DNA of 64,000 bases from the NCBI RefSeq assembly GCF_011045215.1, contig NZ_CP049201.1; one strand, 5' to 3'. Made by a program: the position numbers and the translations under genes. The DNA is from Escherichia coli (GTDB lineage: Bacteria > Pseudomonadota > Gammaproteobacteria > Enterobacterales > Enterobacteriaceae). Below are positions 22,164 through 48,582 of the stretch, piece by piece. Position 1 is the first letter of the stretch. Each line of letters begins with the position of its first letter. The notes beneath the pieces are model-generated. The model was not told the origin of the DNA, made no database searches, and saw only the letters and a list, made by a program, of their open reading frames with translations.

Positions 22164-22240
22164 GCGCCCTTAGCTCAGTTGGATAGAGCAACGACCTTCT
22201 AAGTCGTGGGCCGCAGGTTCGAATCCTGCAGGGCGCGCCA
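22164..22240 (+). tRNA. argU: tRNA-Arg (anticodon UCU)
   Basis: 77-nt cloverleaf GCGCCCTTAGCTCAGTTGGATAGAGCAACGACCTTCTAAGTCGTGGGCCGCAGGTTCGAATCCTGCAGGGCGCGCCA; anticodon loop CCTTCTAAG. Confidence 0.95.
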
Positions 22241-22242
22241 TT
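22196..22242. repeat. attL core: 47-bp direct repeat (3' half of argU)
   Basis: identical to 43685-43731. Confidence 0.85.
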
Positions 22243-22255: not shown

Positions 22256-23419
22256 TTACGCCTTCTTTATATCCTCCATAATTCCACAGTGGGACATATT
22301 TGGGACATTATCACCAAAAATGTCGTCTATTTTCCTTGCATGCTCTGTCAAATGATTAGGCGCAAGGTGAGCATACCTACGAACCATTTCTATGGACTCC
22401 CATCCGCCCATTTCCTGAAGCACAGATAATGGGACGCCTGACTGGATCAGCCAGCTTGCCCAGGTGTGTCTGAGGTCATGGAAACGGAAATCTTCAATTC
22501 CTGCACGACGACAAGCTGATAGCCATGATGTCTTGCTGTCGATGCGCATCTTCCTGACCGCAGGCGTTGATGTTCCATCTGCTCGCTTAGCCGCCTTGGT
22601 ATGTACAAACACCCATTTGTGATGCTTGCCTATTTGATCACGCAACACTTTACAGGCGGTATCGTTCAGCGCCACACCAATGGCGCGGTTTGATTTGCTC
22701 TCTTCTGGATTCACCCAGGCAACTCGTCGCTGCATGTCGATTTGTTGCCATTCCAGATTTATGATGTTCGACTTTCTCAGACCAGTTGCCAGCGCAAACT
22801 TGACGACAGATTTCAGTGGTTCGGGGCACTCATCAATAAGGCGTTTTGCTTCCTCCTTTTCCAGCCATCTGACTCGCTTGTTTCTGACCGCTGGTATCTT
22901 GATGACAGGCGCTTTTTCCAGCCACTTCCAGTCGCGTTCTGCAGCACGGAGAATGGCCTTTATCATGGCAAGATGCTTTGCCTTTGTCTGAGTTGATACT
23001 GGCTTTGGTTCATAAACAGGCGGTTCTTTACCTTTCCTGATGGCGGCCTGAACTTTCTGTTTCCATATTTCTTTCGTCTTTCTGTTATGCATTCTGCTTA
23101 CAGCAGAGTAAATCTTTGCCTCCGAGATATCTTTAAGCCTTATACCCTCAAAATGTTCAAGCCAGAACTCAATCCGGCTTTTATCTGAATCGAGAGATTT
23201 TTTATCAGCTTTTTCCTCAAGCCATCTTAGGCAGGCCTCTTCAAAAGTGACATCAGGTAAATCCCCTAGCTTTTCTACTCGCCAGAGTTCTGCTTTTCGC
23301 TTGTCGTGCAACTCCTGAGCTTGCCGCTTGTCCTTTGTGCCAAGAGATTCCTTAATTCGTTTCCCGCCCGGGAGCGAATACGAGGCATACCATATTTCAT
23401 TTCTGCGGAAGAGTGACAT
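22256..23419 (-). CDS. intD: prophage tyrosine integrase
   Basis: 387 aa; C-terminal R..HxxR..Y catalytic region (HDLRHTWAS ... RRYAHL); adjacent to argU. Confidence 0.9.
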
Positions 23420-23646: not shown

Positions 23647-26262
<2,616 letters not shown>

Positions 26263-29484: not shown

Positions 29485-30177
29485 TTAATTATGTCTCTTA
29501 AGGGTTTGCGACTGACTGATTAAGACCTTTCCAAAGACCATGAATCGGTGTTCGTTTTCGCTAGTAATTCCCCATTCACGGTAAATCTGGTTATCAGAAA
29601 TCACCAGCAGTTTGTCAGGAATCATTTGAAGTCTTTTAACGTATATTTTGTCATCAAAACCAAAGACATATATACCATCACCATCAAACTGATTGATGCT
29701 GACATCAACGAAGATGAGATCTCCTGGCTCAATGGTTGGACACATACTGTCCCCACGAACGTTGATAACTTTGATGTGATTGGCTGGTCGTCCGCCGAAC
29801 ATTGATACAGCATTATCAGTTCTGTATTCGATGGCATGAATCACATCAATGACATCACCGCCCTGGATAAGGCCATTTCCCGCACTGGCACTGATATCCA
29901 GCATTTCAATACGGAACACATCCTTCACCTGCGCAACATCCTCATTATTACTGTTTTTATATACAGTATTACTTTTGTGGGCAGAGGTAAAGAGATCAGC
30001 AATATCAACACCTAAGCTCTTGGCAATATTACTCAGTGTTTGTTCGGTAAATTGTTTTTGCTTACCCGTTTCTAAGCGCGAGATGTTCGCCGCATCTACT
30101 CCTATTGCTTCAGCGAGATCGGCGATTTTCATGTTCTTCGCTTGGCGAAGTTGTCTGACTCGGTTTCCTATGTTCAT
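29485..30177 (-). CDS. phage CI-type repressor (XRE HTH plus S24 LexA-like peptidase domain)
   Basis: 230 aa; N-terminal HTH; C-terminal region with GDSM and a conserved Lys typical of S24 autopeptidases; divergent from cro. Confidence 0.8.
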   Translation of the reverse strand: MNIGNRVRQLRQAKNMKIADLAEAIGVDAANISRLETGKQKQFTEQTLSNIAKSLGVDIADLFTSAHKSNTVYKNSNNEDVAQVKDVFRIEMLDISASAGNGLIQGGDVIDVIHAIEYRTDNAVSMFGGRPANHIKVINVRGDSMCPTIEPGDLIFVDVSINQFDGDGIYVFGFDDKIYVKRLQMIPDKLLVISDNQIYREWGITSENEHRFMVFGKVLISQSQTLKRHN

Positions 30178-32912: not shown

Positions 32913-33458
32913 ATGGAAGTCAACAAAAAGCAGCTGGCTGACATTTTCGGTGCGAGTATCCGTACCATTCAGAACTGGCAGGAACAGGGAATGCCCGTTC
33001 TGCGAGGCGGTGGCAAGGGTAATGAGGTGCTTTATGACTCTGCCGCCGTCATAAAATGGTATGCCGAAAGGGATGCTGAAATTGAGAACGAAAAGCTGCG
33101 CCGGGAGGTTGAAGAACTGCGGCAGGCCAGCGAGACAGATCTCCAGCCAGGGACTATTGAGTACGAACGCCATCGACTTACGCGTGCGCAGGCCGACGCA
33201 CAGGAGCTGAAAAATGCCAGAGACTCCGCTGAAGTGGTGGAAACCGCATTCTGTACTTTCGTGCTGTCGCGGATCGCAGGTGAAATTGCCAGTATTCTCG
33301 ACGGGATCCCCCTGTCGGTGCAGCGGCGTTTTCCGGAACTGGAAAACCGACATGTTGATTTCCTGAAACGGGATATCATCAAAGCCATGAACAAAGCAGC
33401 CGCGCTGGATGAACTGATACCGGGGTTGCTGAGTGAATATATCGAACAGTCAGGTTAA
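32913..33458 (+). CDS. nohD: terminase small subunit Nu1 homologue
   Basis: 181 aa, near-identical to remembered lambda Nu1 (MEVNKKQLADIFGASIRTIQNWQEQGMPV...). Confidence 0.9.
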   Translation: MEVNKKQLADIFGASIRTIQNWQEQGMPVLRGGGKGNEVLYDSAAVIKWYAERDAEIENEKLRREVEELRQASETDLQPGTIEYERHRLTRAQADAQELKNARDSAEVVETAFCTFVLSRIAGEIASILDGIPLSVQRRFPELENRHVDFLKRDIIKAMNKAAALDELIPGLLSEYIEQSG

Positions 33459-34324
33459 CAGGCTGCGGCATTTTGTCCGCGCCGGGCTTCGCTCACTGTT
33501 CAGGCCGGAGCCACAGACCGCCGTTGAATGGGCGGATGCCAATTACTATCTCCCAAAAGAATCCGCATACCAGGAAGGGCGCTGGGAAACACTGCCCTTT
33601 CAGAGGGCCATCATGAATGCGATGGGCAGTGACTACATCCGCGAGGTGAATGTGGTGAAGTCTGCCCGTGTTGGTTATTCCAAAATGCTGCTGGGTGTTT
33701 ATGCCTACTTCATAGAGCATAAGCAGCGCAATACCCTTATCTGGTTGCCGACGGATGGTGATGCCGAGAACTTTATGAAAACCCACGTTGAGCCGACTAT
33801 TCGTGATATTCCGTCGCTGCTGGCGCTGGCCCCGTGGTATGGCAAAAAGCACCGGGATAACACGCTCACCATGAAGCGTTTCACCAATGGGCGTGGCTTC
33901 TGGTGCCTGGGCGGTAAAGCGGCAAAAAACTACCGTGAAAAGTCAGTGGATGTGGCGGGTTATGATGAACTTGCTGCCTTTGATGAGGATATTGAACAGG
34001 AAGGCTCTCCGACGTTCCTGGGCGATAAGCGTATTGAAGGCTCGGTCTGGCCAAAGTCCATCCGTGGCTCCACGCCCAAAGTGAGAGGCACCTGCCAGAT
34101 TGAGCGTGCAGCCAGTGAATCCCCGCATTTTATGCGTTTTCATGTTGCCTGCCCGCATTGCGGGGAGGAGCAGTATCTTAAATTTGGCGACAAAGAGACG
34201 CCGTTTGGCCTCAAATGGACGCCGGATGACCCCTCCAGCGTGTTTTATCTCTGCGAGCATAATGCCTGCGTCATCCGCCAGCAGGAGCTGGACTTTACTG
34301 ATGCCCGTTATATCTGCGAAAAGA
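33433..34324 (+). pseudogene. terminase large subunit (lambda A) N-terminal ~297 codons, truncated
   Basis: matches lambda A up to ...YICEKTGIW, then diverges into junk; junction near 34324. Confidence 0.8.
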
Positions 34325-34364
34325 CCGGGATCTGGAGGGGAATACCAACATCGCCGGTGTCACG

Positions 34365-34823
34365 GTGGTGTTCCGGGCAGGTGAACAGGAGCAGACACCG
34401 CCGGAGGGATTTGAATCCTCCGGATCCGAGACGGTGCTGGGTACGGAAGTGAAATACGACACGCCGATCACCCGGACCATCACGTCTGCAAACATCGACC
34501 GTCTGCGCTTTACCTTCGGTGTGCAGGCACTGGTGGAAACCACCTCAAAGGGGGACCGGAATCCATCGGAAGTCCGCCTGCTGGTTCAGATACAACGTAA
34601 CGGTGGCTGGGTGACGGAAAAAGACATCACCATTAAGGGCAAAACCACCTCGCAGTATCTGACCTCGGTGGTGGTGGGTAACCTGCCGCCGCGCCCGTTT
34701 AATATCCGGATGCGCAGGATGACGCCGGACAGCACCACAGACCAGCTGCAGAACAAAACGCTCTGGTCGTCATACACCGAAATCATCGATGTGAAACAGT
34801 GCTACCTTCTGCCCGTAAGGTGA
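34365..34823 (+). pseudogene. internal fragment of tail tip protein J
   Basis: translation ...GTEVKYDTPITRTITSANIDRLRFTFGVQALVETTSKGDRNPSEV... matches the middle of lambda J. Confidence 0.75.
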
Positions 34824-36004
34824 ATGGTAAGGCGCTTTCAGCGGATATAACACTGACGCCGAAAGATATTGGTACGCTTAACTCAACAACAATGTCATTC
34901 AGCGGTGGTGCTGGTTGGTTCAAATTAGCAACGGTAACCATGCCACAGGCGAGTTCTGTTGTTTCAATTACGTTGATTGGTGGAGCTGGATTTAACGTGG
35001 GGTCACCTCAACAGGCAGGTATATCTGAACTTGTTTTGCGTGCAGGTAATGGTAATCCGAAGGGGATTACTGGTGCTTTATGGCAGCGCACATCGACAGG
35101 GTTTACAAATTTTGCCTGGGTCAATACATCTGGTGATACTTACGATATTTACGTTGCAATCGGAAATTATGCGACTGGTGTAAATATTCAATGGGATTAT
35201 ACCAGTAATGCCAGCGTGACGATTCATACGTCACCAGCATATTCTGCTAATAAGCCGGAAGGGTTAACGGACGGTACAGTTTATTCACTCTATACGCCAT
35301 CAGAACAGTTTTATCCGCCTGGCGCACCAATCCCGTGGCCATCAGATACCGTTCCGTCTGGCTATGCCCTGATGCAGGGGCAGACTTTTGACAAATCTGC
35401 CTACCCGAAACTTGCAGTCGCTTATCCGTCAGGCGTGATCCCTGATATGCGTGGCTGGACGATTAAGGGCAAGCCCGCCAGTGGTCGTGCCGTATTGTCT
35501 CAGGAACAGGACGGCATTAAATCGCATACCCACAGCGCCAGCGCATCCAGTACGGATTTGGGTACGAAAACCACATCGTCGTTTGATTACGGAACCAAAT
35601 CCACGAATAACACCGGGGCGCATACCCATAGTATTAGCGGGACTGCAAATAGTGCCGGTGCGCACCAACACAAGAGTTCCGGTGCATTTGGTGGCACGAA
35701 CACGAGCATTTTTCCTAATGGTTATACTGCGATTTCAAATCCAAGCGCGGGGATTATGAGCACAACAAGCGGTACTGGCCAGACTCGTAATGCAGGGAAG
35801 ACATCATCAGATGGTGCTCATACCCACTCACTGTCCGGCACTGCTGCAAGCGCAGGTGCACACGCACATACTGTCGGTATTGGTGCTCATACGCACTCCG
35901 TTGCGATTGGTTCACATGGACACACCATCACCGTTAACGCTGCTGGTAACGCGGAAAACACCGTCAAAAACATCGCATTTAACTATATTGTGAGGCTTGC
36001 ATAA
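34799..36004 (+). CDS. side tail fibre protein, C-terminal portion (Stf-like)
   Basis: 401 aa; Gly/Ser/Thr/His-rich repeats (GAHTHS, GAHQHK, GAHAHT) typical of tail-fibre C-termini; followed by tfa. Confidence 0.6.
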
Positions 36005-36585
36005 TGGCATTCAGAATGAGTGAACAACCACGGACCATAAAAATTTATAATCTGCTGGCCGGAACTAATGAATTTATTGGTGAAGGTGACGCATATATTC
36101 CACCTCATACAGGTCTGCCAGCAAACAGTACCGATATTGCACCGCCAGATATTCCGGCAGGCTTCGTGGCTGTTTTCAACAGTGATGAGGCATCGTGGCA
36201 TCTTGTTGAAGACCATCGGGGTAAAACGGTTTATGACGTGGCTTCCGGCGACGCGTTATTTATTTCTGAACTCGGCTTATTACCGGAAAATGTCACCTGG
36301 TTATCCCCGGAAGGGGAGTTTCAGAAGTGGAACGGCACAGCCTGGGTGAAAGATGCAGAAGCAGAAAAACTGTTCCGGATCCGGGAGGCGGAAGAAACAA
36401 AAAACAACCTGATGCAGGTAGCCAGTGAGCATATTGCGCCACTTCAGGATGCTGTAGATCTGGAAATCGCAACGGAGGAAGAAAACTCGTTGCTGGAAGC
36501 CTGGAAGAAGTATCGGGTGTTGCTGAACCGTGTTGATACATCAACTGCACCTGATATTGAGTGGCCTGTAATACCAGAAGTTTAA
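36004..36585 (+). CDS. tail fibre assembly protein (Tfa)
   Basis: 193 aa; stop/start overlap with stf. Confidence 0.75.
36424..36548. repeat. direct repeat copy 1 (3' end of tfa)
   Basis: about 90 percent identical to 40254-40380. Confidence 0.7.
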
Positions 36586-36590
36586 AATAA

Positions 36591-36616
36591 AAGCCCGCTT
36601 AAAATATCGCGGGCTT
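36591..36616. terminator. bidirectional hairpin terminator between tfa and the catalase operon
   Basis: AAGCCCGC-TTAAAATAT-CGCGGGCTT. Confidence 0.55.
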
Positions 36617-36704
36617 CGAAATATAAATGTATTTTCAGAGGCTAGAGCTTAGGATATCTCAGCGGCAATTAACTTATGAGGGATAGCTAAATACCAGAAG
36701 ATAA

Positions 36705-37595
36705 TTAGTTTTTACTATTTATCTTTGTTTGTGGTTCTCCTTCAGCAAGCTCAGCGCCAGTGACAGGATTGATGTCTTCATGGGATTTCAACCTTGTTGC
36801 CATAGCTTTTATCATAGCTTCTTGCTTGGTCGAAAGATTTATCGAGGCCTTCCCATCCCCACCGTCAACCGCTGGAACTGGATCGGAAATATAGTCAAAG
36901 TTTTCATCACTGTTCCAACTACCTCTGACGTCTTCACCTTCTGACATGTTGTAATATACGTTTTTGTATTTCTCAATTGGTGGTAATTTTCCTGGTGGAA
37001 AGGTGTTGCGAATTGAATGTAATGCTTTTTCAAATGAAAGCATGTGTGCTGCTTCCCTGGTCATTAAAAATGCCAGAGTGTCTTTTACTCCAGGATCATC
37101 AGTAACATTAATGAGACGTTCGTAAATGATCTTTGCCCGAGCTTCAGCTGCAATATTTGAACGAAGATCGGCCGTGACTTCGCCAATAGTATCAACATAA
37201 GCTGCAGTCCAGGGTACTCCAGCTGAATTAGTTAATGCTGGGCCTCCTCCGTAGAGGAGAGAAGTTATATGGCTGTCATTGCCATTTTGAGTTAAGGAAC
37301 GGTAAAGCTCAGCTTCATTCTCAGTTCCTTCAGCAAGTGCTCCTTTTGCACCTTTGTTGAGCATACCAACAAGAGAACCAATAATTTCGAGATGACTTAG
37401 TTCTTCTGTTGCTATGTCCATCAGCATATCCCTTCGGCCTGCATCTTCATCACTTAAGCCTTGAGTGAAGTATCGGCATGCTGCTGCAAGCTCACCCTGT
37501 GGCCCGCCGAATTGTTCTAAAAGTAGATTAGCCAAGCCTGGGTTTGGCTCACTTACACGTACTGTATATTGAAGTTTTTTCACGTGTCTAAACAT
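36705..37595 (-). CDS. manganese (non-haem) catalase, KatN-like
   Basis: 296 aa ferritin-like di-metal protein; last gene of the yciG/yciF/yciE-like operon, as in the Salmonella yciGFE-katN arrangement. Confidence 0.7.
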   Translation of the reverse strand: MFRHVKKLQYTVRVSEPNPGLANLLLEQFGGPQGELAAACRYFTQGLSDEDAGRRDMLMDIATEELSHLEIIGSLVGMLNKGAKGALAEGTENEAELYRSLTQNGNDSHITSLLYGGGPALTNSAGVPWTAAYVDTIGEVTADLRSNIAAEARAKIIYERLINVTDDPGVKDTLAFLMTREAAHMLSFEKALHSIRNTFPPGKLPPIEKYKNVYYNMSEGEDVRGSWNSDENFDYISDPVPAVDGGDGKASINLSTKQEAMIKAMATRLKSHEDINPVTGAELAEGEPQTKINSKN

Positions 37596-37613
37596 AATGC
37601 CTCCTCAAAAGAA

Positions 37614-38120
37614 TTATTTTTTGGCTTCAACTCCATCAATTTCAGATCTGACCATGAATTGCTCAGTGGTGTCAGGAATATGGTTAAGAAGCCATTCAGC
37701 CATTTGTTTTTCTTCATTAAGAATTGCTTCAATAATGGGTACTGAAGCTGTATCACCCGCATTTTTGGCTGCTGCGAGAAGAGATGTGTAGCACGCAATT
37801 TCAAATTGTTCGAAAACATAGCCACTGATCGAACCTTTGACAATTTCATCAGATGGAAAAATTCCACCAATGGATTGCCCAAACGCGGCCATTTTACTCA
37901 TAGAGTCTTTAATGACAGAGCGCGAAATATTATTACGATCAAGTATGCTTTCAAGCTGTGAAAGCTGGTTCTTTGTTTCGCTAATGTGCTGCTCAATTCT
38001 GGAACGTAACTCTGGATAGTTTTCTATCCGGCTGGCCATAGACTCAAGCATTTTTTCAGCTTGTTTCTCCATCGCATGTGCATCACGAAGCCAGTCATGG
38101 TAATGTTCAATTCTATTCAT
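37614..38120 (-). CDS. DUF892 ferritin-like stress protein, YciE-like
   Basis: 168 aa; recognised as a YciE paralogue. Confidence 0.7.
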   Translation of the reverse strand: MNRIEHYHDWLRDAHAMEKQAEKMLESMASRIENYPELRSRIEQHISETKNQLSQLESILDRNNISRSVIKDSMSKMAAFGQSIGGIFPSDEIVKGSISGYVFEQFEIACYTSLLAAAKNAGDTASVPIIEAILNEEKQMAEWLLNHIPDTTEQFMVRSEIDGVEAKK

Positions 38121-38156
38121 AATCTGTTTATCCTAAAAGAAATTGAAGTCTATAGT

Positions 38157-38663
38157 TCAGGAGTTATCCTGAGCTTTTTTATTAACGTTATTAAATGCCA
38201 GGTCTGTTAATTTGACATCAGTAGCTTTTTCCTCTTCCAGTGTTTCTTTCAGGAGTTTAGCCGCTTTTTTATATCCTAATTGCTCAGCGAGTGTTACCAA
38301 AGTGCCATAACTGGCAATTTCATAGTGCTCTACTTTTTGTGCTGCAGCAATCAATGCAGCATCACGTACTTCATTTTTATCAGTGCTTTCAATTACCTCA
38401 TTCGCCTCTTCGATAAGTCCTTCCATTGCGGCACACTTAATTCTTTTCAATTTAAGACCATCTTCAGAATCAACAATCTGATCGATGCGTTCAATTTGAC
38501 CATGTGTCTCATCAAGATGTGACTGAAAAGCAGCGGTTAATTTATCACTATATGCAGAGCGACTAAGTTTAGACAGTGCCTTTGTTAGTTGTTTCTCAGC
38601 GCTGTATGTATCCGATAATAAGTGGATGAAGATATCTTCAACAGATTTAATTTGCATAATCAC
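38157..38663 (-). CDS. DUF892 ferritin-like stress protein, YciF-like
   Basis: 168 aa; recognised as a YciF paralogue. Confidence 0.7.
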   Translation of the reverse strand: MIMQIKSVEDIFIHLLSDTYSAEKQLTKALSKLSRSAYSDKLTAAFQSHLDETHGQIERIDQIVDSEDGLKLKRIKCAAMEGLIEEANEVIESTDKNEVRDAALIAAAQKVEHYEIASYGTLVTLAEQLGYKKAAKLLKETLEEEKATDVKLTDLAFNNVNKKAQDNS

Positions 38664-38735
38664 TCCAGAGTTTTCACTGCGAGCCCGTAGGCTCGCAGTT
38701 AGCTTCAGTTATTCACGAATGTAGGGGATGATAAA

Positions 38736-38918
38736 TTAAGAGTCAGATTTACGGCCGCCACCATGGCTATTCTGACCACCTTTTTTCCCTGCTTCTGATG
38801 CTCTTTGTGGATCGTTTTTAAAATTACCGCCACTATGTTGGCCGCCTTTACGACCAGCGTCAGAAGCTTTTTGTCGATCTTCAGCGAAATTACCTGCACC
38901 GCCACGATGTTCGGTCAT
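38736..38918 (-). CDS. KGG-repeat general stress protein, YciG-like
   Basis: 60 aa with repeated KGG / RKGGQ motifs. Confidence 0.65.
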   Translation of the reverse strand: MTEHRGGAGNFAEDRQKASDAGRKGGQHSGGNFKNDPQRASEAGKKGGQNSHGGGRKSDS

Positions 38919-39422
38919 ATCATTTCTCCTCTGATTTTCAAATTGTAAATAACATGTGCCTTGTCAGCACCCAATTAACTCTAGTAACAAATAAGAAAGT
39001 GTCAAATAACAGATTGGTATGCGCATTTTGATGTGAGAAATAATAATTGTAAAAATGTGCGCTCAGTGAGTATAATCTATTGATATCTTAGTGATTAACG
39101 GAAAATTTAGGTTGTAACTCAAAAGATTAATAAACCTAAATTTACATTTCTATATTATTTGGTGTGCCTGTTGTTGTTTTTCTCAATAAGAATACTCTGT
39201 AAAATAATTCAATCGTAAGATGGTTGTTATTCATATTTTTTTGAGATAGTTCCTAATAGGGTCCATCCCTTGAATAAATAATTGTTTTAAAATTTCGTCT
39301 AAAGAACTAATTACAAGAAAATTTATATAGTCCAAGGAATCATGATTGTACTTAACCATAAGATTTGAGCGTAAAAATTAATGCGCAGCACGTCGTATGC
39401 AAGAACGTGCTGCGGTTGGATG

Positions 39423-40091
39423 CTATTTTTTCCCTGAAGCGGAAAACATTACTACAGTACCTTGAACCTTGGTTTTAACATTCTCGAAATGCTCTGAGAG
39501 TATATGTGTTAAGCCTTCTTCGGAATCTCTTGTGTTTGAAAAGATGCCTTTCTGATTGTAAATGCGCATCAGTTTTTGACCGAAGCGATTGTGCACAATT
39601 CCATCGCCAAGAATTGTGGCTCCGTATAGAGTTCCATCGCCAGTTAAGGCCTGCGCCGCATTGCGTATTACACAGCTTTTTGTAGATATATTTCCAGGCA
39701 GGCAGTGAAGAAGGTAAAACATGGAAATGGAATCAAATTGACCATGTAACGCCGCGGGATAAGGTTCAAAAACATCATGGCTAATTTTATGTTTAATTTT
39801 TGATTCCCCAGCCCTTGTAGATGCCGCGTTCAGGCTAGCTTCGTTCAAATCCATTAAAGATATCAGACTACTCTCAGGTACGTGAGTAAGGTAAAACCCA
39901 GTTCCAACACCAATATCCAGATGGTTGTTACCTAAATGTTCCAGAAAGTGTGGAAGAAGGTGTTCCTTTGTAGGACATCCCCATGCAAGCCGATTTGATA
40001 CTCCCAAAACCCACCAGTCATAAAGCTTTAGGGTAAGTGGTGTGTAAATTTTAGCCCCATCATCTGTGTTTTTTTTCATTAATTTCACCAT
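39423..40091 (-). CDS. class I SAM-dependent methyltransferase
   Basis: 222 aa; motif I LDIGVGTG; hairpin terminator just downstream. Confidence 0.65.
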   Translation of the reverse strand: MVKLMKKNTDDGAKIYTPLTLKLYDWWVLGVSNRLAWGCPTKEHLLPHFLEHLGNNHLDIGVGTGFYLTHVPESSLISLMDLNEASLNAASTRAGESKIKHKISHDVFEPYPAALHGQFDSISMFYLLHCLPGNISTKSCVIRNAAQALTGDGTLYGATILGDGIVHNRFGQKLMRIYNQKGIFSNTRDSEEGLTHILSEHFENVKTKVQGTVVMFSASGKK

Positions 40092-40147
40092 GTTATAGTT
40101 TTATTTGTGAATTAAATCAATTATGGCAATGAATTACAAGGGGTTAA

Positions 40148-40453
40148 ATGCTGCCGCAGCATGGCGATATTGAAATAGCCTGGTATGCTTCAATACAGCA
40201 GGAGCCGAATGGCTGGAAGACCGTCACCACACAGTTCTACATCCAGGAATTCAGTGAGTATATTGCGCCACTGCAGGATGCTGTAGATCTGGAAATCGCA
40301 ACGGAGGAAGAAAGATCGTTGCTGGAGGCATGGAATAAATATCGGGTATTGTTGAATCGTGTTGATACATCAGTAGCTCTGGGTATGAAGCTGTTTGTAA
40401 CTCATGTTACAGTAACAGCCATTACTATCTCGAAGGTGCAAAATGTATATTGA
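40148..40453 (+). pseudogene. tail fibre assembly (tfa) 3' remnant
   Basis: only the C-terminal Tfa segment ([34 protein letters not shown]) is recognisable. Confidence 0.6.
40254..40380. repeat. direct repeat copy 2 (tfa 3' end)
   Basis: pairs with 36424-36548. Confidence 0.7.
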
Positions 40454-40636
40454 TTTGATATTTTATAAATTTACTTCGAATCTGGCACGTCAACTTTTGA
40501 TTAAAGTAATATCAGTTTTCGGCGAAAAAAGGACCGTGTACATGAGACGATTTCATACAAGAATAACAAAAATATGAATATGCTCCCAATGCAATATATG
40601 TTTTGCATTGGGAGCAAATAGCGGAATATTTTGAAA

Positions 40637-42121
40637 TTATTGTATTTCTGCTTCAGAATTTCCTGGGCAGTATATATTTTCTATTTTTTGTGGAGTGATC
40701 AGGTGATGTACAACTGCTTTATCTACACATAAATTAACTCCGGTGAGAGCTAATGTATGCCCATCACCATTTATTGTTAGTAACGGGCTGGAAAATTTCT
40801 CTGCCATCTTACGGGCATTAATCCAGGGCGTTGTTGGATCGTATTTGTGTGCTACAAACAGTAAACCAGAGGGCAGAACAGTATTTTTCAGGCGAGTTTT
40901 GTTCAGGTCGCTATGTATTGGCCATAATTCACAAAAATCAGGTGAATCGGAACGTCCATTGTCAAAGTTAATAGCCGGGAAGGCATTCGCAAGAGCCTCT
41001 TTTCGGAATTTTCGCTCTTCTGGTGTTAATTGCTCATCCCCCTGATCTACACAAAGGATTACCCCCGAAGCATCACTTGACTCTTCTGAGGCTATCGGAG
41101 CACTGAGCGCAGTTTCAATTTCATTACTGACAATCCCCTGAGAGAACTGGCGTATGGCAGTTGCAAGGGTTGGCCATGATGAACGCCATAGCAGAAGGTC
41201 TGTTGTTAATGATATGAGTTCATCTGAAGATATATTTTCTCCCTTACTGTCTAATAAAGGTTTGTGATGTAATTTTGATAATAGCTCATGGAACTGAGTT
41301 ATTGCCTTATCTCTGTCTGAAGAAAGCGGGCAACTTTTTGTACGCGCACACCAGGATGCAAAGCGATCAAACGTTTCCTGATAACTCTGTGCCTGTTTGA
41401 GTTGCCATGTGAAGTTGTTCTCCAGGTCATCGATATCGACGACTCCATCAAGAACGATAGATCTTACGTTGTAGGGAAAACGTTCTGCATATAAGGCTGC
41501 AATTTGAGTTCCATACGAATACGCCACGGCTGTCAGTTGTTTATCCCCCAAGGCTTGCCTAATACGATCAATATCGTATACAGCCTCGTTAGAGCCGATA
41601 TGGCGAATGACTTCGGCTCCGGTATTATGGATACAGGCATTAATTTTATTTAATACTTGTTGCTTTTCGGTTATGTTTTCCTGAGTCTCTGTATCTGATT
41701 GTCGGCAGTTTATTGTCGGAGTGGACTGTCCGACGCCTCGAGGATCAAATCCAATAATATCCCATGACTCACGAAGATTTGTGACTGGCCAGTCAAAGTT
41801 AATATAAGGATTTATGCCTGGCAACCCGGGACCACCACTTATTATCAGGATACTTCCTTTATGCTTGCTTTTTGCCGGCAATTTTGTCAACGCTAGTTTG
41901 ACTTGTGATTTTTTTTCATAAGAAGCATCTCCGCCTGTGTCTGTATATTTTAATGGAACAGACAAATAACCACATAGTAAGTCAGGAGACGGTTTTTCCT
42001 CACCAAACCAGTGGTTGAATTGACTGGCCATACAGGATTGCCACTGTATCTGCTGGGCAGATACGGTTACTGGTAGAAGTAACGTTAAAACAACTTTGAA
42101 ATGAGTAATTATTTTTCGCAT
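40637..42121 (-). CDS. secreted alpha/beta-hydrolase (peptidase S33-like)
   Basis: 494 aa; N-terminal signal peptide; GGPG and nucleophile-elbow-like AYSYG motifs. Confidence 0.6.
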   Translation of the reverse strand: MRKIITHFKVVLTLLLPVTVSAQQIQWQSCMASQFNHWFGEEKPSPDLLCGYLSVPLKYTDTGGDASYEKKSQVKLALTKLPAKSKHKGSILIISGGPGLPGINPYINFDWPVTNLRESWDIIGFDPRGVGQSTPTINCRQSDTETQENITEKQQVLNKINACIHNTGAEVIRHIGSNEAVYDIDRIRQALGDKQLTAVAYSYGTQIAALYAERFPYNVRSIVLDGVVDIDDLENNFTWQLKQAQSYQETFDRFASWCARTKSCPLSSDRDKAITQFHELLSKLHHKPLLDSKGENISSDELISLTTDLLLWRSSWPTLATAIRQFSQGIVSNEIETALSAPIASEESSDASGVILCVDQGDEQLTPEERKFRKEALANAFPAINFDNGRSDSPDFCELWPIHSDLNKTRLKNTVLPSGLLFVAHKYDPTTPWINARKMAEKFSSPLLTINGDGHTLALTGVNLCVDKAVVHHLITPQKIENIYCPGNSEAEIQ

Positions 42122-42307
42122 TGTGTCTCTGAATATCGGAATAAAGATAAAATTTGAATATATTGAGGTCTTGTGTTGCGGTAAGAGATTACACGTTATG
42201 ACATAGGTTAAATGCTTACAAAATTAGTGGATATTGTCTACTTGTAACTGTAAACAAATTCCCCGGGGTTATACAATACCACCGGGGAGAAAATCTGGTT
42301 AACTTCG

Positions 42308-43261
42308 TTAAAAGGTGTACTTAAGACCAGCAGTAGTGATGAAGTTATAGTTTTCTATGCCTGCACCATTTTTGCTGTAGTCTGAAGTGTTATCATTGTG
42401 ATCATAAAGTGAAGTATTACCTTTTTTATTCGTAACCCGATTCCATGCGCCTTCAACATAAACTTTTGCGTTAGGTGTTACGTAATAACCTGCATTGACT
42501 GCAACAGAATAGTAATTTTGGTCTTTGACCTTACTGCGATAAGTGATTCTTTTTCCCGGGTCATAGTGTTCATCGTTATCAGATGATTCCACCCAGCCGC
42601 TGTATTTAAATGTGCCACCGAGTTCAAAATCTTCATAACGATAACTTCCAGTCAAGCCAATGTAGGGCATTTTAAAACGTTGTTTGTAGCCGATTGCTCT
42701 TTCTCCATTCGGGAAGGAGCCGATATCATCTCTGAATCCCTCCTCAGAACTGTAGATATAGGAACCACCTCTGGCTGTAAAGCTATAACGGCTTTCCTGA
42801 TATCCGGCCATGAGTCCCAGGCGGTAATTGGGTTCGTTGAGGAGCCAGCCTTTGATATTCAGATCAAATTCGTTGGCATAATTGAGTTGTGTATCAGGGT
42901 GCTTACTTTCATCTGTCCAGGTTCCGGGGTTACTGGAATCCATCCAGTCCTGATCGACCATATTGCCACCCCGGCTGCCGAGAGTAGTCCAGCCCGCAGC
43001 CCCAATAGATATCTGGGGCATCAAATCCCAATTAATTGCACCTTTAATAATTGCAGCGTTATTGAATTTCCAGTCGAGTTGACTGACTTTTCGGCCTCCT
43101 TCTTCAGCTAGATAAACGCGCTCTTTTGTTTTTCCGCTCAGAGTTCCAAGACTAATGTCCACATTTATGTTGTCAGGAGTAAACGATATAGTCTCGGTAG
43201 AAGCAAAAGAGCTGATCGCAATAGGGGTTGTCAGGACTATTCCCAGAAGTTTCGCCCGCAT
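42308..43261 (-). CDS. ompT: outer-membrane protease (omptin)
   Basis: 317 aa, recognised as OmpT. Confidence 0.95.
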   Translation of the reverse strand: MRAKLLGIVLTTPIAISSFASTETISFTPDNINVDISLGTLSGKTKERVYLAEEGGRKVSQLDWKFNNAAIIKGAINWDLMPQISIGAAGWTTLGSRGGNMVDQDWMDSSNPGTWTDESKHPDTQLNYANEFDLNIKGWLLNEPNYRLGLMAGYQESRYSFTARGGSYIYSSEEGFRDDIGSFPNGERAIGYKQRFKMPYIGLTGSYRYEDFELGGTFKYSGWVESSDNDEHYDPGKRITYRSKVKDQNYYSVAVNAGYYVTPNAKVYVEGAWNRVTNKKGNTSLYDHNDNTSDYSKNGAGIENYNFITTAGLKYTF

Positions 43262-43684
43262 AAAAGTTCTCCATTCAATCGTTTTAATGATTGAATATGT
43301 ATTTTTTATATCTAACTTAATGAGTCAATTACATATTGCTCCACTGTTTATATTTTGTTTAGTATTGAATGATTATCACAATGCGCTATCTATTTTTGGT
43401 TTAATTATCTGTTATTGTTTCATATTGCGGTTTTACTGTGTGTTTTTTTTATGCTTTTGTGGTGCTTTTATCTATTTAAGTGCCATGCCTTTAGAGGCAT
43501 ATAAGCGAAAATAGCACGAGGTTTATCCTCAATTGCTATGTTTTTTAGTACAAAAAAGAGGGACAAAACTGAGACACATAAGGCCTCACAATGGCTTGCA
43601 AGGCTTTACATGTTTTGAGGTAGTGGGACGTGTGAGCGCAGAGATGGCGCGGTAAGTTGTTGACTTAAAATGTCGTTCTAGGAA

Positions 43685-43731
43685 CTTCTAAGTCGTGGGC
43701 CGCAGGTTCGAATCCTGCAGGGCGCGCCATT
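43685..43731. repeat. attR core: 47-bp copy of the argU 3' half
   Basis: identical to 22196-22242; no 5' half of a tRNA is present. Confidence 0.85.
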
Positions 43732-43774
43732 TCTTCTTCATTTATGCCCGTCTTATCCGTTTCCGCTTTGCCCT

Positions 43775-44536
43775 TCACCACATCACTTTTTGTCGCTGTT
43801 TGGCGAGATAATTCAACGGTGTCAGGCCGTAAAACGCCTTAAAAACAGAGATAAAGTACGACGTGCTGCTATAGCCACATAATTGCGCCACCTGAGTGAT
43901 ATTTTTGTTATCCATCAATAACATCTGTACGGCGTAACGCATACGACACTCTGTGACAATCTGGCTATAGCTGGTATTTTCGTTTTTTAATTTCTTTTTG
44001 AGCAGGCTGGGGCTTAAACATAGCGAACTGGCGACAATTCGCAGATTCCAGTAATGCTGAATATCGCTTTGAATAATGCGGCAGACGCTGTCGCGGACGC
44101 TGCTGCGTAAGATATACATCAGTAGGGCAATAAACCGCGATTGCTCAAGAAAGTTAGACAATACGGTAAAAAGCAATGCGCGCGTCAACTCCGCTTCGCA
44201 GGGTTTGCTGGGTTGCTGCTTGCTGTGGTTGGCGGCTAGCCGGAACACTTCCGGTGTACGGCTATGACAAGCGATAACCGGGGTAGCCAGCCGCGACCAG
44301 GGCTTTACACAGGTTAAGTTCTTATTTAAAAACAACAGATAATCGTTGATGATGTTACGGTTGATGTGGGTGATTAATACGTGATTTAACGTTGAGAGTT
44401 CAATGACGTTATTGTTGCACGCGAAGGCGGCCAGGTAGTTTTTCGGAAGGGTAAACGTAGCATGGTTATTGACGCTTACCTCTACCTCTTTTTCGGTCAG
44501 GATCACCACGCAAGGTTCACTGCTGCTCAATTGCAT
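43775..44536 (-). CDS. envY: AraC-family porin thermoregulator
   Basis: 253 aa, C-terminal AraC HTH. Confidence 0.85.
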   Translation of the reverse strand: MQLSSSEPCVVILTEKEVEVSVNNHATFTLPKNYLAAFACNNNVIELSTLNHVLITHINRNIINDYLLFLNKNLTCVKPWSRLATPVIACHSRTPEVFRLAANHSKQQPSKPCEAELTRALLFTVLSNFLEQSRFIALLMYILRSSVRDSVCRIIQSDIQHYWNLRIVASSLCLSPSLLKKKLKNENTSYSQIVTECRMRYAVQMLLMDNKNITQVAQLCGYSSTSYFISVFKAFYGLTPLNYLAKQRQKVMW

Positions 44537-44718
44537 TTCGCACTCCTCAGATATCAGAAACTCCGCTCAAAGGATCTATGCTTCCTGCATGAGTGATCGG
44601 CCCGTTCGCCGATAACGATCTTCTTTCTTTAGCATGCTTTTTAGCAATTAATCTTGATGGAATTCTGACGAGAGCGAAAGAGGTAAGCCAGGTCGTACCC
44701 GACTTACCTGGAGGAGAT

Positions 44719-45609
44719 TTAATACTCGAGAATGCCGTGCGCGACGGGCAAATAGCGCAGAGAGAAATAGAGAGTGTCTTTACCGCAAGAGGAACGTTTC
44801 GCTAACAGCGAGGCAATTTCTGCGTCCGGTTTCGGTTTCGCTGTAAAGGTTTTGCCTTTGCCGGCGACAAACAGTTCATAAACAATGCCGCTTGCTGGGG
44901 CGGAGCTTTGGCAATCGGCGCTGGCCTGTAGATAACGTTCACGCTGTTCAGCGGTAAGTTTATTCACGCCGCTGCCATCCTGTACCCAGACATTAACGCC
45001 GGTTGCTTTAACGTGTTCCAGCAGTTGGCGATAGCCATCGGGCGACATGTTTCCGGCGAAAAAACTACTGATATAAACCGGTTTTGCTGAAACATCGCTA
45101 ATCAGCCGCTGCGCGTTGTTTAACCATGTTAGCAAAGGCTGACGGGCGGCTTCGCTGCGCCAGTTCAGGTCGTCAATTTCCGCGCTGATGTACCAGCCAT
45201 CCGGCGTTACGCCAGGCGCGGCGCTCCATAATCTGGCTTGCTGGAGATCGGCAGCCAGCAGGCGATTAAGATAGCTTTCCAGCGCTGCGGACGACTGTTT
45301 CTGGTGCATAAAAAATTCCGGATCGGCGTTCAGCCCGACAATCAGCTTCAGGCCAGCCTGTTGCGCAGCTGCGGCCCGCTTAAACAATAACGTGCGCTGT
45401 TCTGGCTGGGTAAATGCATCGCCGTAACGGGTCCATTGCAAAACCAGGGTATCGAAGCCTTGCAAACGTAACTGACTCATCAGCCCCTGCCACTGGGTAT
45501 CGGTAACCTGACTATCACGGTTTTGTGGTTGCCAGATAATACCTTTCATCGCAAAGGAAAAAGGGCTGACCAAAAGCAGTGTCAGCAATACGAAAATGAA
45601 CTTACGCAT
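44719..45609 (-). CDS. ybcH: DUF4434 exported protein
   Basis: 296 aa with signal peptide; start abuts nfrA stop. Confidence 0.8.
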   Translation of the reverse strand: MRKFIFVLLTLLLVSPFSFAMKGIIWQPQNRDSQVTDTQWQGLMSQLRLQGFDTLVLQWTRYGDAFTQPEQRTLLFKRAAAAQQAGLKLIVGLNADPEFFMHQKQSSAALESYLNRLLAADLQQARLWSAAPGVTPDGWYISAEIDDLNWRSEAARQPLLTWLNNAQRLISDVSAKPVYISSFFAGNMSPDGYRQLLEHVKATGVNVWVQDGSGVNKLTAEQRERYLQASADCQSSAPASGIVYELFVAGKGKTFTAKPKPDAEIASLLAKRSSCGKDTLYFSLRYLPVAHGILEY

Positions 45610-48582
45610 TTACCAGTGCACTCCAATGGTGAGAAACGCGTTGTTGCGCTCTCCGTTACGTTGATTAATCGCCTTAAAGGTATGTTGATACTCGACGCCG
45701 AGACTGACTTTGTGCGGCCAGGCGTCGTAGTGCGTCTCGCCGGTCCAGATATTCCAGCGGACCCCGACACCGCCAAGCTGCGCGCCCTGAGTGCCTTTAT
45801 CACGATAGCCGTTGTCCTGAACGTGAGCGTAAGGCTCAATAGTCTGTCCGTTAGCTACCTTCTGATGCCAGCTGACGCGATAATCTGCCGTCCACGCCTG
45901 AATATCCTGGCGGATATATTGCGCCGCATCGAGGTACAGGTTTTGGGCAAACCAGCCTGAACCGCTCGGGTGCCATTCGTCGCTGTATTTGCCGCCATTA
46001 AAGAATGAGGCGCTGGCGCGCAGCATGGTATCGGATGCGCCATTTTGCCCGTTCAGCGGCAACTGCTGTTCGACGGCGAGGAAAAAGATCTGATCGCGCA
46101 GCGGCTTCCAGCGTAGACCGGTGCCGGACATCGGATTTTTCACCGGCATCATCACCCCGTTTTCTCCGGTATCGGCAAAGACGCGGCTATAAACTGAAAG
46201 CAGGTCGCCTTCCAGCAGCATATTTCGTCCGATGCGGTATTCGGCTTCCAGTTGCCCGTAGCTACGATAGCTTTTCCCTGGCGCTGCGCCGCCGACATTA
46301 TTGTTAGCGGTACTCATTGCGCCGGAACGCAAGCCGATGGAAGAATCGAAACTGAACGTCCAGCGGCGACCGACCTCCTCATGCAAACGGCGGAAATTGA
46401 AGCGTTGCTGATTTTGTTCTGGCGTCAATGGGGTTATCAGCGCCTGATTATCAATGTCATCAATCACCAGCCGGGCGTAGTGCTGCGTCGCAGGCATGTC
46501 ATCCAGACGCTGGTTCACGTAGGCCAGTTGTCGGATCAGTGCCGGATCGTCCGGAAGCCCTTTTTGCGCCTGTTCGAGCATTTCCCGCGACTGTGCGATA
46601 TCACCGCTATCCCACAAGGCGTAACCAAGCGCTGCCTGGATGTTGCTATTATTCGGTTCCAGTTCCAGCGCGGCGCGCAAATCACTCACCGCGGCCGGGA
46701 CATTATGACGTTGGCGATAAATTGTCGCCCGCGCAACGTAAGCGTTGGCAGAAGGCGCAATATTGATTGAGCGCGTGAGATCGTTCAGTGCGAGTTCCGG
46801 CTGACCAGGAATGTAACGTTGCGCATGCAGCCACCAGTAGAGGGCATTGCTTCCCAGTCCACGTTGTTCTGCCTGTTGTAGCCAGCGATCGCGAGCCGCA
46901 CCATTTCCTGCCGCCTGGGCGGTATTGGCAGCAGCAAGCAGATCCTCATTGCTCATGTCGTGAAGACTGATTTTCTGCCAGGCCGCCAGTGCGGTGGCGT
47001 AGTCCTCAACCTGATACGCCTGATAGGCTACCGCACGATGTTGCCAGGCGTTCGGTTGTCGTTGTTCGGCCTGAAGCCATGCATACAACGCCACACCGGG
47101 TAGCGTGTCCCGATAACACTTTGCCAGACGGTTCCAGGCGGCGGCATCGTAGGAAGGCGACATATCGCCCAGCAAGCGAACTATTGCCGGGCAATTATCT
47201 GCAATACCCGGCAACTGACTTTGCCACTGACGTTGCTCCGCCAGCGGTAAGGGTTTCGATAAAATCGCCACCTTCGCCGGCGTTGCCAGGTAAGGATGAC
47301 TTTCCAGCAGAGACGCCAGTCGCGCCATTAAAGTCTGGCTGATACGCGCATCGCCCTGGAAAGGATAGCGTTGCAGCAATAAATCGGCAGCTTCCCGTGA
47401 CTGCTCGTTCTGCATCAGTTGCCAGGTTAGTTGATCCAGGCGGGTAAGATTTGCCGGTTCTTGCTGATACAGCAAGCGTGCCAGACGCAGAGCTTCAGCC
47501 TTGTTACGGGTCGCCACGCTGACAGCATAACGCTCCTCAAGCATTTCATTGGCGGGGAGGGTGGCGAGCAGTTTTTGCGCTGCGTCGTACTGACCTTCTT
47601 TTAACAGCACCGGTAGCGTCGCGCCAACAACATACTGGCGGTTATCGGCAAACTGCACCGTATAATTCGCCAATGCCTGAACGGGGTTGGCGCTGTATTT
47701 AGATAACAGATAGAGCCAACTTTTCTCTTGTGCGTCCGTGGTAAACAGCGGCTTATTTTCAATGAGATAATGCTGGAGGCGTGCTTTTTCGCCACGATAA
47801 GCCAGCGCGGTCGCGTAAGTAATATATGACTGAGGATCGGTGAAGATCCCCTGTGATTGCAGTGCCAGGATCCGATCGTCCAGCTGCCCGGCAAGAAGCA
47901 CGTCAAACCACTGACGGCGTTCTGCCGCGCTTAATGTGTTCTGCTGGCGTGCTTCATTGTATAGCGTATCTGCCTGGGACCATTGTTTCAGGTAGATTGC
48001 CCGTTGCAGCAGATCGGTTCGCAGCGTTTTTCCTTCCGGCGATGCAGCAAACGTCGCATCGTTCAGTTGCGCTCTGGCGACAGGTAACTGTGCCAGCCGC
48101 AGGGCATTCTGCCCGACTTCACTGCGACAACGCAGGGTCGGCGCAGCATCGCACGCTTTTTGCTGGGCAAGCAGTTCTTCAACAGTTGTAATGCTTTTCA
48201 CTTCAACCGGAATAGCCGCCAGACTGCGCTCAAGTCGGGCATCTCCTGGGTGACGTTTCAGTTGATCCTCAAGCAACAGCCGCGCCCGGTCATCATGACC
48301 AAAATGGCGATAGGCTTCCGCAAGGTATAAAGTCAGCGGAATATTATCCGGCACCTGCTGGTGTATATATTCAAATTCGCGGATGGCGGTTGCTTCGTCG
48401 TTATTTTTCTGTGCCTTCAGCGCCTTATCGAGACGGGGATAAATAACAAAATGGCGATAATCGCTCAGCCCCAGCTCTTCTGCGCTGGTGCCGATATTGT
48501 CTGCGAGTGCGCTGGTACTCAATAAAGACGTCAGCAGTAAACCAGACCATCCGATGACGCGATTAAGGTTATTCTCCTTCAT
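45610..48582 (-). CDS. nfrA: phage N4 adsorption protein A, outer-membrane TPR protein
   Basis: start at MKENNLNRVIG..., 990 aa. Confidence 0.9.
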   Translation of the reverse strand: MKENNLNRVIGWSGLLLTSLLSTSALADNIGTSAEELGLSDYRHFVIYPRLDKALKAQKNNDEATAIREFEYIHQQVPDNIPLTLYLAEAYRHFGHDDRARLLLEDQLKRHPGDARLERSLAAIPVEVKSITTVEELLAQQKACDAAPTLRCRSEVGQNALRLAQLPVARAQLNDATFAASPEGKTLRTDLLQRAIYLKQWSQADTLYNEARQQNTLSAAERRQWFDVLLAGQLDDRILALQSQGIFTDPQSYITYATALAYRGEKARLQHYLIENKPLFTTDAQEKSWLYLLSKYSANPVQALANYTVQFADNRQYVVGATLPVLLKEGQYDAAQKLLATLPANEMLEERYAVSVATRNKAEALRLARLLYQQEPANLTRLDQLTWQLMQNEQSREAADLLLQRYPFQGDARISQTLMARLASLLESHPYLATPAKVAILSKPLPLAEQRQWQSQLPGIADNCPAIVRLLGDMSPSYDAAAWNRLAKCYRDTLPGVALYAWLQAEQRQPNAWQHRAVAYQAYQVEDYATALAAWQKISLHDMSNEDLLAAANTAQAAGNGAARDRWLQQAEQRGLGSNALYWWLHAQRYIPGQPELALNDLTRSINIAPSANAYVARATIYRQRHNVPAAVSDLRAALELEPNNSNIQAALGYALWDSGDIAQSREMLEQAQKGLPDDPALIRQLAYVNQRLDDMPATQHYARLVIDDIDNQALITPLTPEQNQQRFNFRRLHEEVGRRWTFSFDSSIGLRSGAMSTANNNVGGAAPGKSYRSYGQLEAEYRIGRNMLLEGDLLSVYSRVFADTGENGVMMPVKNPMSGTGLRWKPLRDQIFFLAVEQQLPLNGQNGASDTMLRASASFFNGGKYSDEWHPSGSGWFAQNLYLDAAQYIRQDIQAWTADYRVSWHQKVANGQTIEPYAHVQDNGYRDKGTQGAQLGGVGVRWNIWTGETHYDAWPHKVSLGVEYQHTFKAINQRNGERNNAFLTIGVHW

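Follow-up and report, generated by a model that had tools for sequence, protein, structure and literature searches.

The closest characterised relative of the enzyme treated here is Hip1 of Mycobacterium tuberculosis (Rv2224c, CaeA; PDB 5UGQ, 7SFM, 8E5W), an envelope-associated serine protease with esterase activity, which contains 11 cysteines and five disulfides, is needed for envelope integrity, processes endogenous GroEL2 and is related to the tripeptidyl peptidases of Streptomyces (PMC4022732). The outer-membrane protease OmpT (omptin family) is in turn well studied in Escherichia coli for its part in antimicrobial-peptide resistance and virulence, and is a nuisance protease in biotechnology. 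Here we describe a locus in which the two families meet, in a 64,000-nt stretch of the E. coli contig NZ_CP049201.1 (assembly GCF_011045215.1), hereafter the window, where a gene for a predicted exported relative of Hip1 lies directly behind ompT in the cargo region of a prophage. Coordinates refer to the window unless stated otherwise and are collected in Table 1, and genome counts are over 5426 complete E. coli genomes. Both the genes and the order in which they stand were already public in prophage Sp8 of the O157:H7 strain Sakai, in phage genomes and in PHROGs, and the enzyme family is known; the link to Hip1 and the omptin-hydrolase pairing, including that of OmpP, were not found in the searchable literature.

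The cargo end of the prophage almost certainly comprises two separate units, a solitary methyltransferase gene (ybcY) and a cassette of ompT and the hydrolase gene that is closed by a strong predicted terminator. The three open reading frames are assigned by Pfam to a class I methyltransferase, to Abhydrolase_1 plus TAP-like Abhydrolase_4, and to Omptin, respectively. An earlier note on this DNA had proposed an intact 222-aa methyltransferase and a 494-aa secreted hydrolase inserted beside ompT, and both frames are present in the open reading frame list with these lengths and at exactly the positions given, ompT beginning one base past the end of the noted region (42307). The hydrolase gene, which that note set upstream of ompT, is downstream of it in the direction of transcription, all three genes lying on the minus strand.

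The hydrolase matches Abhydrolase_1 (PF00561, 114 bits against a cut-off of 25.8, E 1e-32) and the TAP-like Abhydrolase_4 (PF08386, 53.9 bits against a cut-off of 21, E 2e-14), and shares these two domains, and its apparent export, with the Streptomyces lividans peptidases Tap, SlpD and SlpE (MEROPS S33), a comparison made through Pfam and the Hip1 paper only. In a phmmer search of the PDB, Hip1 was found with E 1.8e-50 over residues 21-475, followed by the tiancimycin enzymes TnmK1 (E 1e-18) and TnmK2 (E 1e-8), and structural alignment with Hip1 gives about 27% identity. The putative catalytic triad is complete, with Ser202 (YSYGT), Asp428 (DPTTP) and His455 (GDGHT) aligned with Hip1 Ser228, Asp463 and His490, and all three are invariant across 40 aligned homologs, the most distant of which has 27% identity, as is the neighbouring Thr431 (equivalent to Hip1 Thr466). 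The AlphaFold2 model (pLDDT 89.3, pTM 0.89) has a large helical lid domain like that of Hip1 and places Ser202 between strand 196-201 and helix 203-214, in a canonical nucleophile elbow. A Foldseek search of the PDB returned the Hip1 entries first (TM 0.76-0.81, E 3.6e-33), then TnmK1 and TnmK2, and then much shorter prolyl aminopeptidases. On these alignments and the model, the protein is almost certainly a full-length S33/TAP-like homolog of Hip1.

The N-terminus reads MRKIITHFKVVLTLLLPVTVSA followed by QQIQWQSC, and residues 1-22 have the shape of a Sec-type signal peptide that would be cleaved between VSA and QQ. The alternative start at Met31, used in the annotation of phage 2G7b and in the PHROG profile, was rejected on account of the conserved residues W27 and C30, which lie upstream of it and can be aligned with Hip1. 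There are ten cysteines, six of them invariant and four nearly invariant among the 40 homologs, a number that fits five disulfides, and the protein would accordingly be exported to the periplasm and fold there with disulfide bonds. The description of the gene product as an exported S33/TAP-like hydrolase is thus borne out by the Pfam domains, the signal-peptide sequence and the Ser-Asp-His triad. The likeness to Hip1 extends to export to the envelope, with the differences that the window hydrolase belongs to a Gram-negative bacterium, has a plain signal peptide and is presumably soluble in the periplasm, and that it has an omptin as partner and phages and plasmids as carriers. GroEL2, the known mycobacterial substrate of Hip1, has no bearing on this case. 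Homologs with 40-55% identity were found in Serratia, Salmonella, Budvicia, Providencia, Pantoea, Pseudomonas, Chromobacterium and Acinetobacter, and those of 27-37% identity are abundant in Actinobacteria among the matches listed; all of these homologs are named no more specifically than 'alpha/beta hydrolase'.

In all six of the hydrolase lineages of 76-100% identity that were looked up, the hydrolase gene is immediately preceded by an omptin gene on the same strand, in surroundings that are otherwise unrelated. The reference lineage is that of the window, prophages and live phages (at least 99% identity in the phages), where the hydrolase gene follows ompT as prophage cargo after a spacer of 186 nt (42122-42307). 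The others are plasmid pH22 (hydrolase 95%, ColV-like plasmid, spacer 184 nt), P0002 (82%, plasmid-like contig, 188 nt), P0003 (81%, beside fimbrial and autotransporter genes, about 92 nt after start correction), P0005 (78%, contig with IS66, 92 nt) and P0006 (76%, next to OmpP on at least 156 conjugative plasmids, 92 nt). The OmpP-hydrolase pair of the F-like conjugative plasmids has the same gene order and strand as the window pair, keeps the hairpin behind the omptin gene and has the triad and cysteines intact; it differs in its plasmid context, its short spacer with a strong ribosome-binding site, and its protein sequences (69% identity between OmpP-type and OmpT-type omptins, 76% between the hydrolases). 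All six hydrolases retain the triad, the cysteines and a signal-peptide junction of the form VSA(Q/R)(Q/R)IEWQSC. Pairwise identities of omptins and hydrolases over the 15 lineage pairs correlate with Pearson r = 0.81, a descriptive figure, since the pairs are not independent, and one that co-inheritance as a unit would predict. By these comparisons, the pair is old and its members diverge together; it is found on live phages, ColV-like plasmids and OmpP plasmids.

The pair is also common in E. coli. The hydrolase gene gave a match in 1253 genomes, mostly at 99% identity or more and in single copy, and is at least 80% covered in 1229; it is thus an accessory gene, present in about 23% of complete genomes, and not a common core gene. 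The earlier note had called for a comparison of the junction across E. coli genomes, and this gave 1233 genomes with the hydrolase-ompT junction (751-bp probe) and 831 with the K-12-type appY-ompT junction (equivalent probe), so that nearly every hydrolase copy abuts ompT. The whole 3.2-kb block is uninterrupted in 874 genomes. It had been annotated before in the lambda-like prophage Sp8 of O157:H7 Sakai, as ECs_1656 (methyltransferase), ECs_1657 (tfa'), ECs_1662 ('hydrolase') and ECs_1663 (ompT), and is found in another O157 strain. The hydrolase is also encoded, at 99% identity or more, in eleven records of isolated temperate phages, 2G7b, ev243, Turner and PhiR26_1 among them, and the genomes of 2G7b and PhiR26_1 read stf-tfa-ybcY-tfa'-hydrolase-ompT-(att)-int. 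The methyltransferase-tfa'-hydrolase-ompT block of Sakai and of these phages is the same as that of the window; Sp8 differs in lying at another chromosomal site and in having ISEc8 between tfa' and the hydrolase gene, while the window prophage is defective and lies at the DLP12 (argU) site. All three genes are represented in PHROGs by families of 'unknown function' (hydrolase phrog_20134, methyltransferase phrog_2132). In the prophage and in the viable phages alike the genes occupy the position of a phage moron, a non-essential site between the tail fibre genes and att. Because the block is found in viable phages and in many genomes, it is standard phage cargo that is still transduced, and not an insertion special to this genome. 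A 2015 paper states that 'rorf1', which flanks cdt toxin clusters on lambdoid prophages, resembles ECs1662 (PMC4606577), and the hydrolase gene may also adjoin cdt in some strains.

The ompT-hydrolase unit runs opposite to the tail genes, and its end is marked by a predicted hairpin with a 14-bp stem behind the hydrolase gene. A second, GC-rich hairpin stands between the two genes, and spacer alignments indicate that such a hairpin, about 20 nt after the omptin stop codon and followed by a U-rich run, has been kept in all six lineages; it is probably a leaky terminator or an RNA-stabilising element. In the OmpP-like lineages the distance from hairpin to start codon is about 45 nt and ends in an AGGAGA ribosome-binding site, and in the OmpT lineages it is about 95 nt longer. 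The 92-nt spacers would leave little room for a separate promoter, and a consensus scan of the ompT-hydrolase spacer found no promoter-like site. In a microarray time course of O157:H7 Sakai, ECs1662 falls by 2.53 log2 units (5.8-fold) between 4.6 and 5 h, on entry into stationary phase, and ompT falls by 2.72 log2 units between 4.6 and 5.5 h (PMC2241611). ECs1662 is therefore expressed in exponential-phase O157:H7, and the data are compatible with co-transcription without demonstrating it.

The reading that we prefer, to which we give a probability of about 40%, is that the hydrolase is a periplasmic, disulfide-bonded serine peptidase with an esterase side activity, which is expressed together with the omptin and provides a second layer of peptide degradation or envelope protection. 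The unit would consist of promoter, omptin gene, leaky hairpin, hydrolase gene and terminator, the hydrolase would be made largely by read-through of the hairpin behind the omptin gene, and the hairpin would keep its expression below that of the omptin. At the cell surface OmpT would make the first cuts in cationic peptides and proteins, and those fragments, or other peptides, that enter the periplasm would be trimmed further by the hydrolase; this might aid antimicrobial-peptide tolerance, envelope integrity or peptide scavenging. If the two enzymes do cooperate, deletions of ompT only may underestimate the system in strains that carry both, and K-12 would be without half of it; without such cooperation, the hydrolase would remain an envelope enzyme that is transduced by phages and widely distributed. 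Almost one in four of the complete E. coli genomes, O157:H7 included, has this predicted exported Hip1 relative directly behind ompT, and OmpP plasmids have a paralogous pair. A more ambitious version, which we put forward as speculation that may well prove wrong, sees the omptin and the Hip1-like hydrolase as a proteolytic defence unit that works in two compartments and is disseminated by phages and plasmids, with host cationic peptides and proteins cut at the surface and what passes destroyed in the periplasm, or an envelope or host target processed there. Were it true, O157:H7-type pathogens would hold a functional analogue of the Hip1 immune-evasion protease, one that adds measurably to antimicrobial-peptide resistance or host interaction.

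Several observations weigh against the preferred reading, both on the tie to the omptin and on the chemistry of the hydrolase. As to the former, the hairpin between ompT and the hydrolase gene, with its U-tract, could end most transcripts, and the ribosome-binding site of the window hydrolase (GAGA) is weak. ECs1662 and ompT both belong to growth-associated cluster 1 of the microarray, which is very large, and are tabled for different time intervals, and the microarray was downgraded as evidence for an operon for these reasons (PMC2241611). No omptin neighbours the homologs of 53% identity or less in any of the five contexts examined, namely a Tn7-like element of Salmonella enterica near a serralysin-type M10 peptidase gene (L009, 53%), an IS-flanked site on a Serratia plasmid, a plasmid-like contig from a sequencing run, the Budvicia chromosome next to a Fic gene, and the Serratia marcescens chromosome (L013 5001-8356, 45%), where the gene for a family-5 peptide-binding protein (SBP_bac_5) follows. 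The Serratia and Salmonella neighbours, on the other hand, hint at a role in peptide metabolism. Most omptins, for their part, occur without the hydrolase, including the ColV episomal OmpT, IcsP, Pla, Kop and Cpa, and in PLSDB about 860 plasmids have an omptin at 60% identity or more against about 190 with the hydrolase at that level. OmpT is also active in K-12, which lacks the hydrolase (PMC6854850). Because each enzyme occurs without the other, any cooperation between them is optional.

These facts would fit an alternative that is rather unlikely but survives best, in which the hydrolase is independent cargo, joined to the omptin by common ancestry and a common mobile cassette but by no functional tie, although its substrate may still be peptides. 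In its favour are the distant homologs that travel as solitary cargo on transposons, plasmids and chromosomes, the majority of omptins without a hydrolase neighbour, the exchange in K-12 of the hydrolase for another gene with ompT kept, and the terminator-like hairpin between the two genes; moreover, the six lineages are related by descent, and common ancestry alone could give both the synteny and the correlated divergence. Set against this, the pair survives down to 69% (omptin) and 76% (hydrolase) identity while its surroundings change between prophage, ColV, F-like and fimbrial/autotransporter plasmids, nearly every hydrolase copy in the 5426 genomes abuts ompT, and the 92-nt spacer, containing just a hairpin and a ribosome-binding site, suggests that the hydrolase gene relies on the promoter of the omptin gene. 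A side observation concerns what else stands behind omptin genes: the ColV episomal omptin (73% identity to OmpT; L030, plasmid NZ_CP032080.1, 4001-7467) is followed not by the hydrolase gene but by hlyF (SDR oxidoreductase) and mig-14, genes linked to antimicrobial-peptide resistance, and the slot downstream of the omptin seems to gather genes for envelope and antimicrobial-peptide defence.

As to the chemistry, the signal peptide and the periplasmic location are read from the sequence alone, no biochemical or genetic study of this hydrolase was found in the searchable literature, and ECs1662 appears there only in a microarray table (PMC2241611) and a passing remark on cdt flanks (PMC4606577). 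The fold family also includes TnmK1 and TnmK2, which are not proteases, and Hip1 itself cleaves p-nitrophenyl butyrate and was originally described as a carboxylesterase and named carboxylesterase A (PMC4022732). Together with the label 'putative lactone hydrolase' in phage records and the scores of the NCBIfam peptidase models, which lie far below their cut-offs (36 bits against 260 for prolyl aminopeptidase), these points speak for an enzyme that is mainly an esterase or lipase, acting on a lactone, a lipid or an acyl ester of the envelope or the host, and not a peptidase. We consider this unlikely: by a wide margin the closest characterised relatives are peptidases (Hip1 at E 2e-50 against TnmK1 at 1e-18, and the Streptomyces tripeptidyl peptidases; PMC4022732), the TAP-like C-terminal domain is present, and Thr431 is invariant.

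The hydrolase could also act on OmpT itself or on other envelope proteins, in maturation, quality control or turnover, and not on exogenous peptides, but this is improbable. To our knowledge, no data point to processing of OmpT beyond removal of the signal peptide, which counts against such a role. The conservation of the gene pair and the processing of endogenous GroEL2 by Hip1 (PMC4022732) would suit it, whereas OmpT is fully active in K-12 and other strains without the hydrolase (PMC6854850).

Comparison with K-12 bears on how the arrangement arose. The right end of K-12 DLP12, in the order tfaD-ybcY(pseudogene)-tfaX-appY-ompT-envY-ybcH-nfrA, occupies the same integration site and has ybcY, tfaX and ompT at 97-98% DNA identity, whereas its ybcY is a pseudogene, appY stands in place of the hydrolase segment and the manganese (Mn) catalase operon is missing. 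By BLAST, 39384-40377 of the window matches K-12 ybcY'-tfaX at 97.3% identity and 42258-46000 corresponds to ompT and the sequence beyond it at 98.3%, 36568-39383 (the Mn-catalase operon) has no counterpart in K-12, and the hydrolase segment 40378-42257 is exchanged for a 1529-bp appY segment (L002 9105-10634), the exchange points lying just past tfaX and just past the ompT stop codon and hairpin. The presence of appY in the hydrolase position in K-12, which the earlier note had stated, agrees with the K-12 annotation. There is no detectable similarity between the two segments (G+C 28.9% for appY, 39.9% for the hydrolase), and neither tblastn nor sensitive blastn found a significant hydrolase remnant in K-12. 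Because K-12 holds no such remnant, the direction of the replacement rests on comparative evidence and not on a scar. That evidence indicates that appY is a clean replacement of the hydrolase in K-12 and that the omptin-hydrolase pair is older than the K-12 arrangement, because the block lies inside one prophage, has the same order in viable phages and has a paralogous OmpP-hydrolase pair on plasmids. A recent insertion of the methyltransferase and hydrolase genes beside a resident ompT, with displacement of appY, is therefore highly improbable, even though the segments are cleanly exchanged at a position where K-12 has appY: ompT itself lies within the prophage, live phages hold the whole block next to attP and int, the OmpP-hydrolase paralogs predate the K-12 state, the hydrolase-ompT junction is the commoner one, and the AT-rich appY segment looks like the later foreign arrival.

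The prophage, of 21.5 kb, belongs to the DLP12 family and is inserted at argU. Because the argU att repeats flank them, the methyltransferase gene, the tfa remnant, the hydrolase gene and ompT all lie inside it, in a cargo region between tfa and attR, and the K-12 DLP12 annotation likewise ends between ompT and envY. It is a defective lambdoid prophage whose head and tail genes have been deleted, with a breakpoint unlike that of K-12 DLP12. The G+C content is 41-43% in the methyltransferase, hydrolase and ompT genes against 52-55% in the neighbouring core genes ybcH and nfrA. The tfa remnant, which is listed as a pseudogene in other genomes (ompT being annotated as ompT in matching genomes), is a recombination scar that separates two cargo modules, and the direct repeat D1, which brackets the catalase operon and ybcY, marks these as a module joined by recombination to an older tfa-hydrolase-ompT arrangement.

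Table 1. Features of the prophage and its cargo region (positions in the window).
Feature	Position	Strand	Basis and remarks
argU, tRNA-Arg(UCU)	22164-22240		ARAGORN
attL, 3' end of argU	22193-22242	.	left copy of 50-nt att repeat; direct repeat D2, 98% identity to 43682-43731
Integrase gene	22256-23419	-	Pfam Phage_integrase; after attL
IS21 istAB	24181-25982		within prophage
DUF2303 gene			listed between IS21 and CI-like repressor
CI-like S24 repressor	29485-30177		
CII gene			listed between CI-like repressor and Nu1
Nu1	32913-33458		
Terminase gpA	33433-34452		cut down to ATPase part
Tail-fibre C-terminus	34799-36004		directly after truncated gpA
tfa, intact	36004-36585	+	open reading frame list; 78% identity to K-12 TfaD; last structural gene ahead of cargo region
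Direct repeat D1, tfa 3' end	36412-36571 and 40241-40400		160 nt, 83% identity
Stress operon, four genes between tfa and ybcY	36705-38918	-	prophage cargo; Mn catalase (296 aa), two DUF892 ferritin-like proteins (168 aa each), 60-aa KGG-repeat general stress protein
ybcY, class I S-adenosylmethionine (SAM)-dependent methyltransferase	39423-40091	-	Pfam, K-12 alignment, phrog_2132; intact ortholog of K-12 pseudogene ybcY
Sigma-70-like match, TTAACC-16-CATAAT with TG	40120-40147	-	weak, consensus scan; just upstream of methyltransferase start; region not enriched in such sites over shuffled sequence
tfaX-type tfa remnant	40148-40453	+	Caudo_TAP profile positions 75-121 of 131 only; aligned with TfaX and intact Tfa
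Terminator-like hairpin, 14-bp stem	40581-40616	-	terminator scan; RNA fold -24.3 kcal/mol, z = -6.0; 20 nt past hydrolase stop
Predicted exported Hip1/TAP-like alpha/beta serine hydrolase, 494 aa	40637-42121	-	PF00561 and PF08386, Hip1 match, AlphaFold2 fold
GC-rich hairpin, then AAUUUGUUU	42260-42288	-	RNA fold -21.3 kcal/mol, z = -3.0; 20 nt past ompT stop
ompT, omptin outer-membrane protease, 317 aa	42308-43261	-	Pfam Omptin E 2.8e-130; first gene of the pair
attR	43682-43731	.	direct repeat D2; right copy of argU 3'-end repeat, between ompT and envY

The methyltransferase YbcY is a separate matter. It matches Methyltransf_12 (34.5 bits, cut-off 30) and Methyltransf_11 (23.6 bits, cut-off 21.2), with motif I DIGVGTG and residues D59, G61, G63, G65 and D81 invariant. 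It is intact and stands beside the tfa remnant, as had been claimed, though its length is probably 218 and not 222 aa: Met5 (40079) is invariant and is the first residue in nearly all homologs and in phrog_2132, so that the open reading frame start would be four codons too long. The AlphaFold2 model (pLDDT 90.4) consists of alternating strands and helices, and its 50 best fold matches are all small-molecule, lipid or natural-product methyltransferases (TM 0.55-0.66, 13-20% identity). The nominal top match, a bacterial phosphatidylethanolamine N-methyltransferase (8YS9, TM 0.62-0.66), is not distinguishable from dozens more, and PDB sequence matches are marginal (UbiG, E 0.002); with 8YS9, the juvenile hormone acid methyltransferase 7EC0 and UbiG, YbcY shares the Rossmann fold and motif I, and no match stands out. 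A role as a DNA methyltransferase was rejected, there being no DNA methylase family among the Pfam and NCBIfam matches and no extra domain. In Salmonella and Enterobacter, homologs with 56-65% identity sit as ordinary genes on the chromosome, outside prophages and with no conserved partners. A functional link between YbcY and the hydrolase was rejected, none being evident. By sequence and model, YbcY is best described as a solitary methyltransferase of small-molecule type that was captured by lambdoid phages. It is found in 3798 genomes (70%), with up to four copies per genome, and nothing found marks it as unusual.

Some minor observations concern the remainder of the cargo region. The Mn-catalase stress operon resembles yciGFE-katN and is present in Sakai Sp8 as ECs_1652-1655, and is missing in K-12 DLP12. 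The spacer between its KGG stress gene and the methyltransferase gene (38919-39422) comprises 500 bp of 31-35% G+C with no open reading frame of 50 aa or more, and 39200-39290, the first 90 nt of the 39200-42400 query, is unaligned in the best-matching genomes. Phage PhiR26_1 has tfa-ybcY-tfa' without the catalase operon, and the recombination by which cargo modules become stacked probably used the D1 repeat as its substrate or left it behind as a scar. Within the tfa coding sequence there is also an Rfam IS009 match (36347-36545, plus strand, 227.6 bits against a gathering score of 117), which lies entirely inside the gene and may be just conserved tfa coding DNA.

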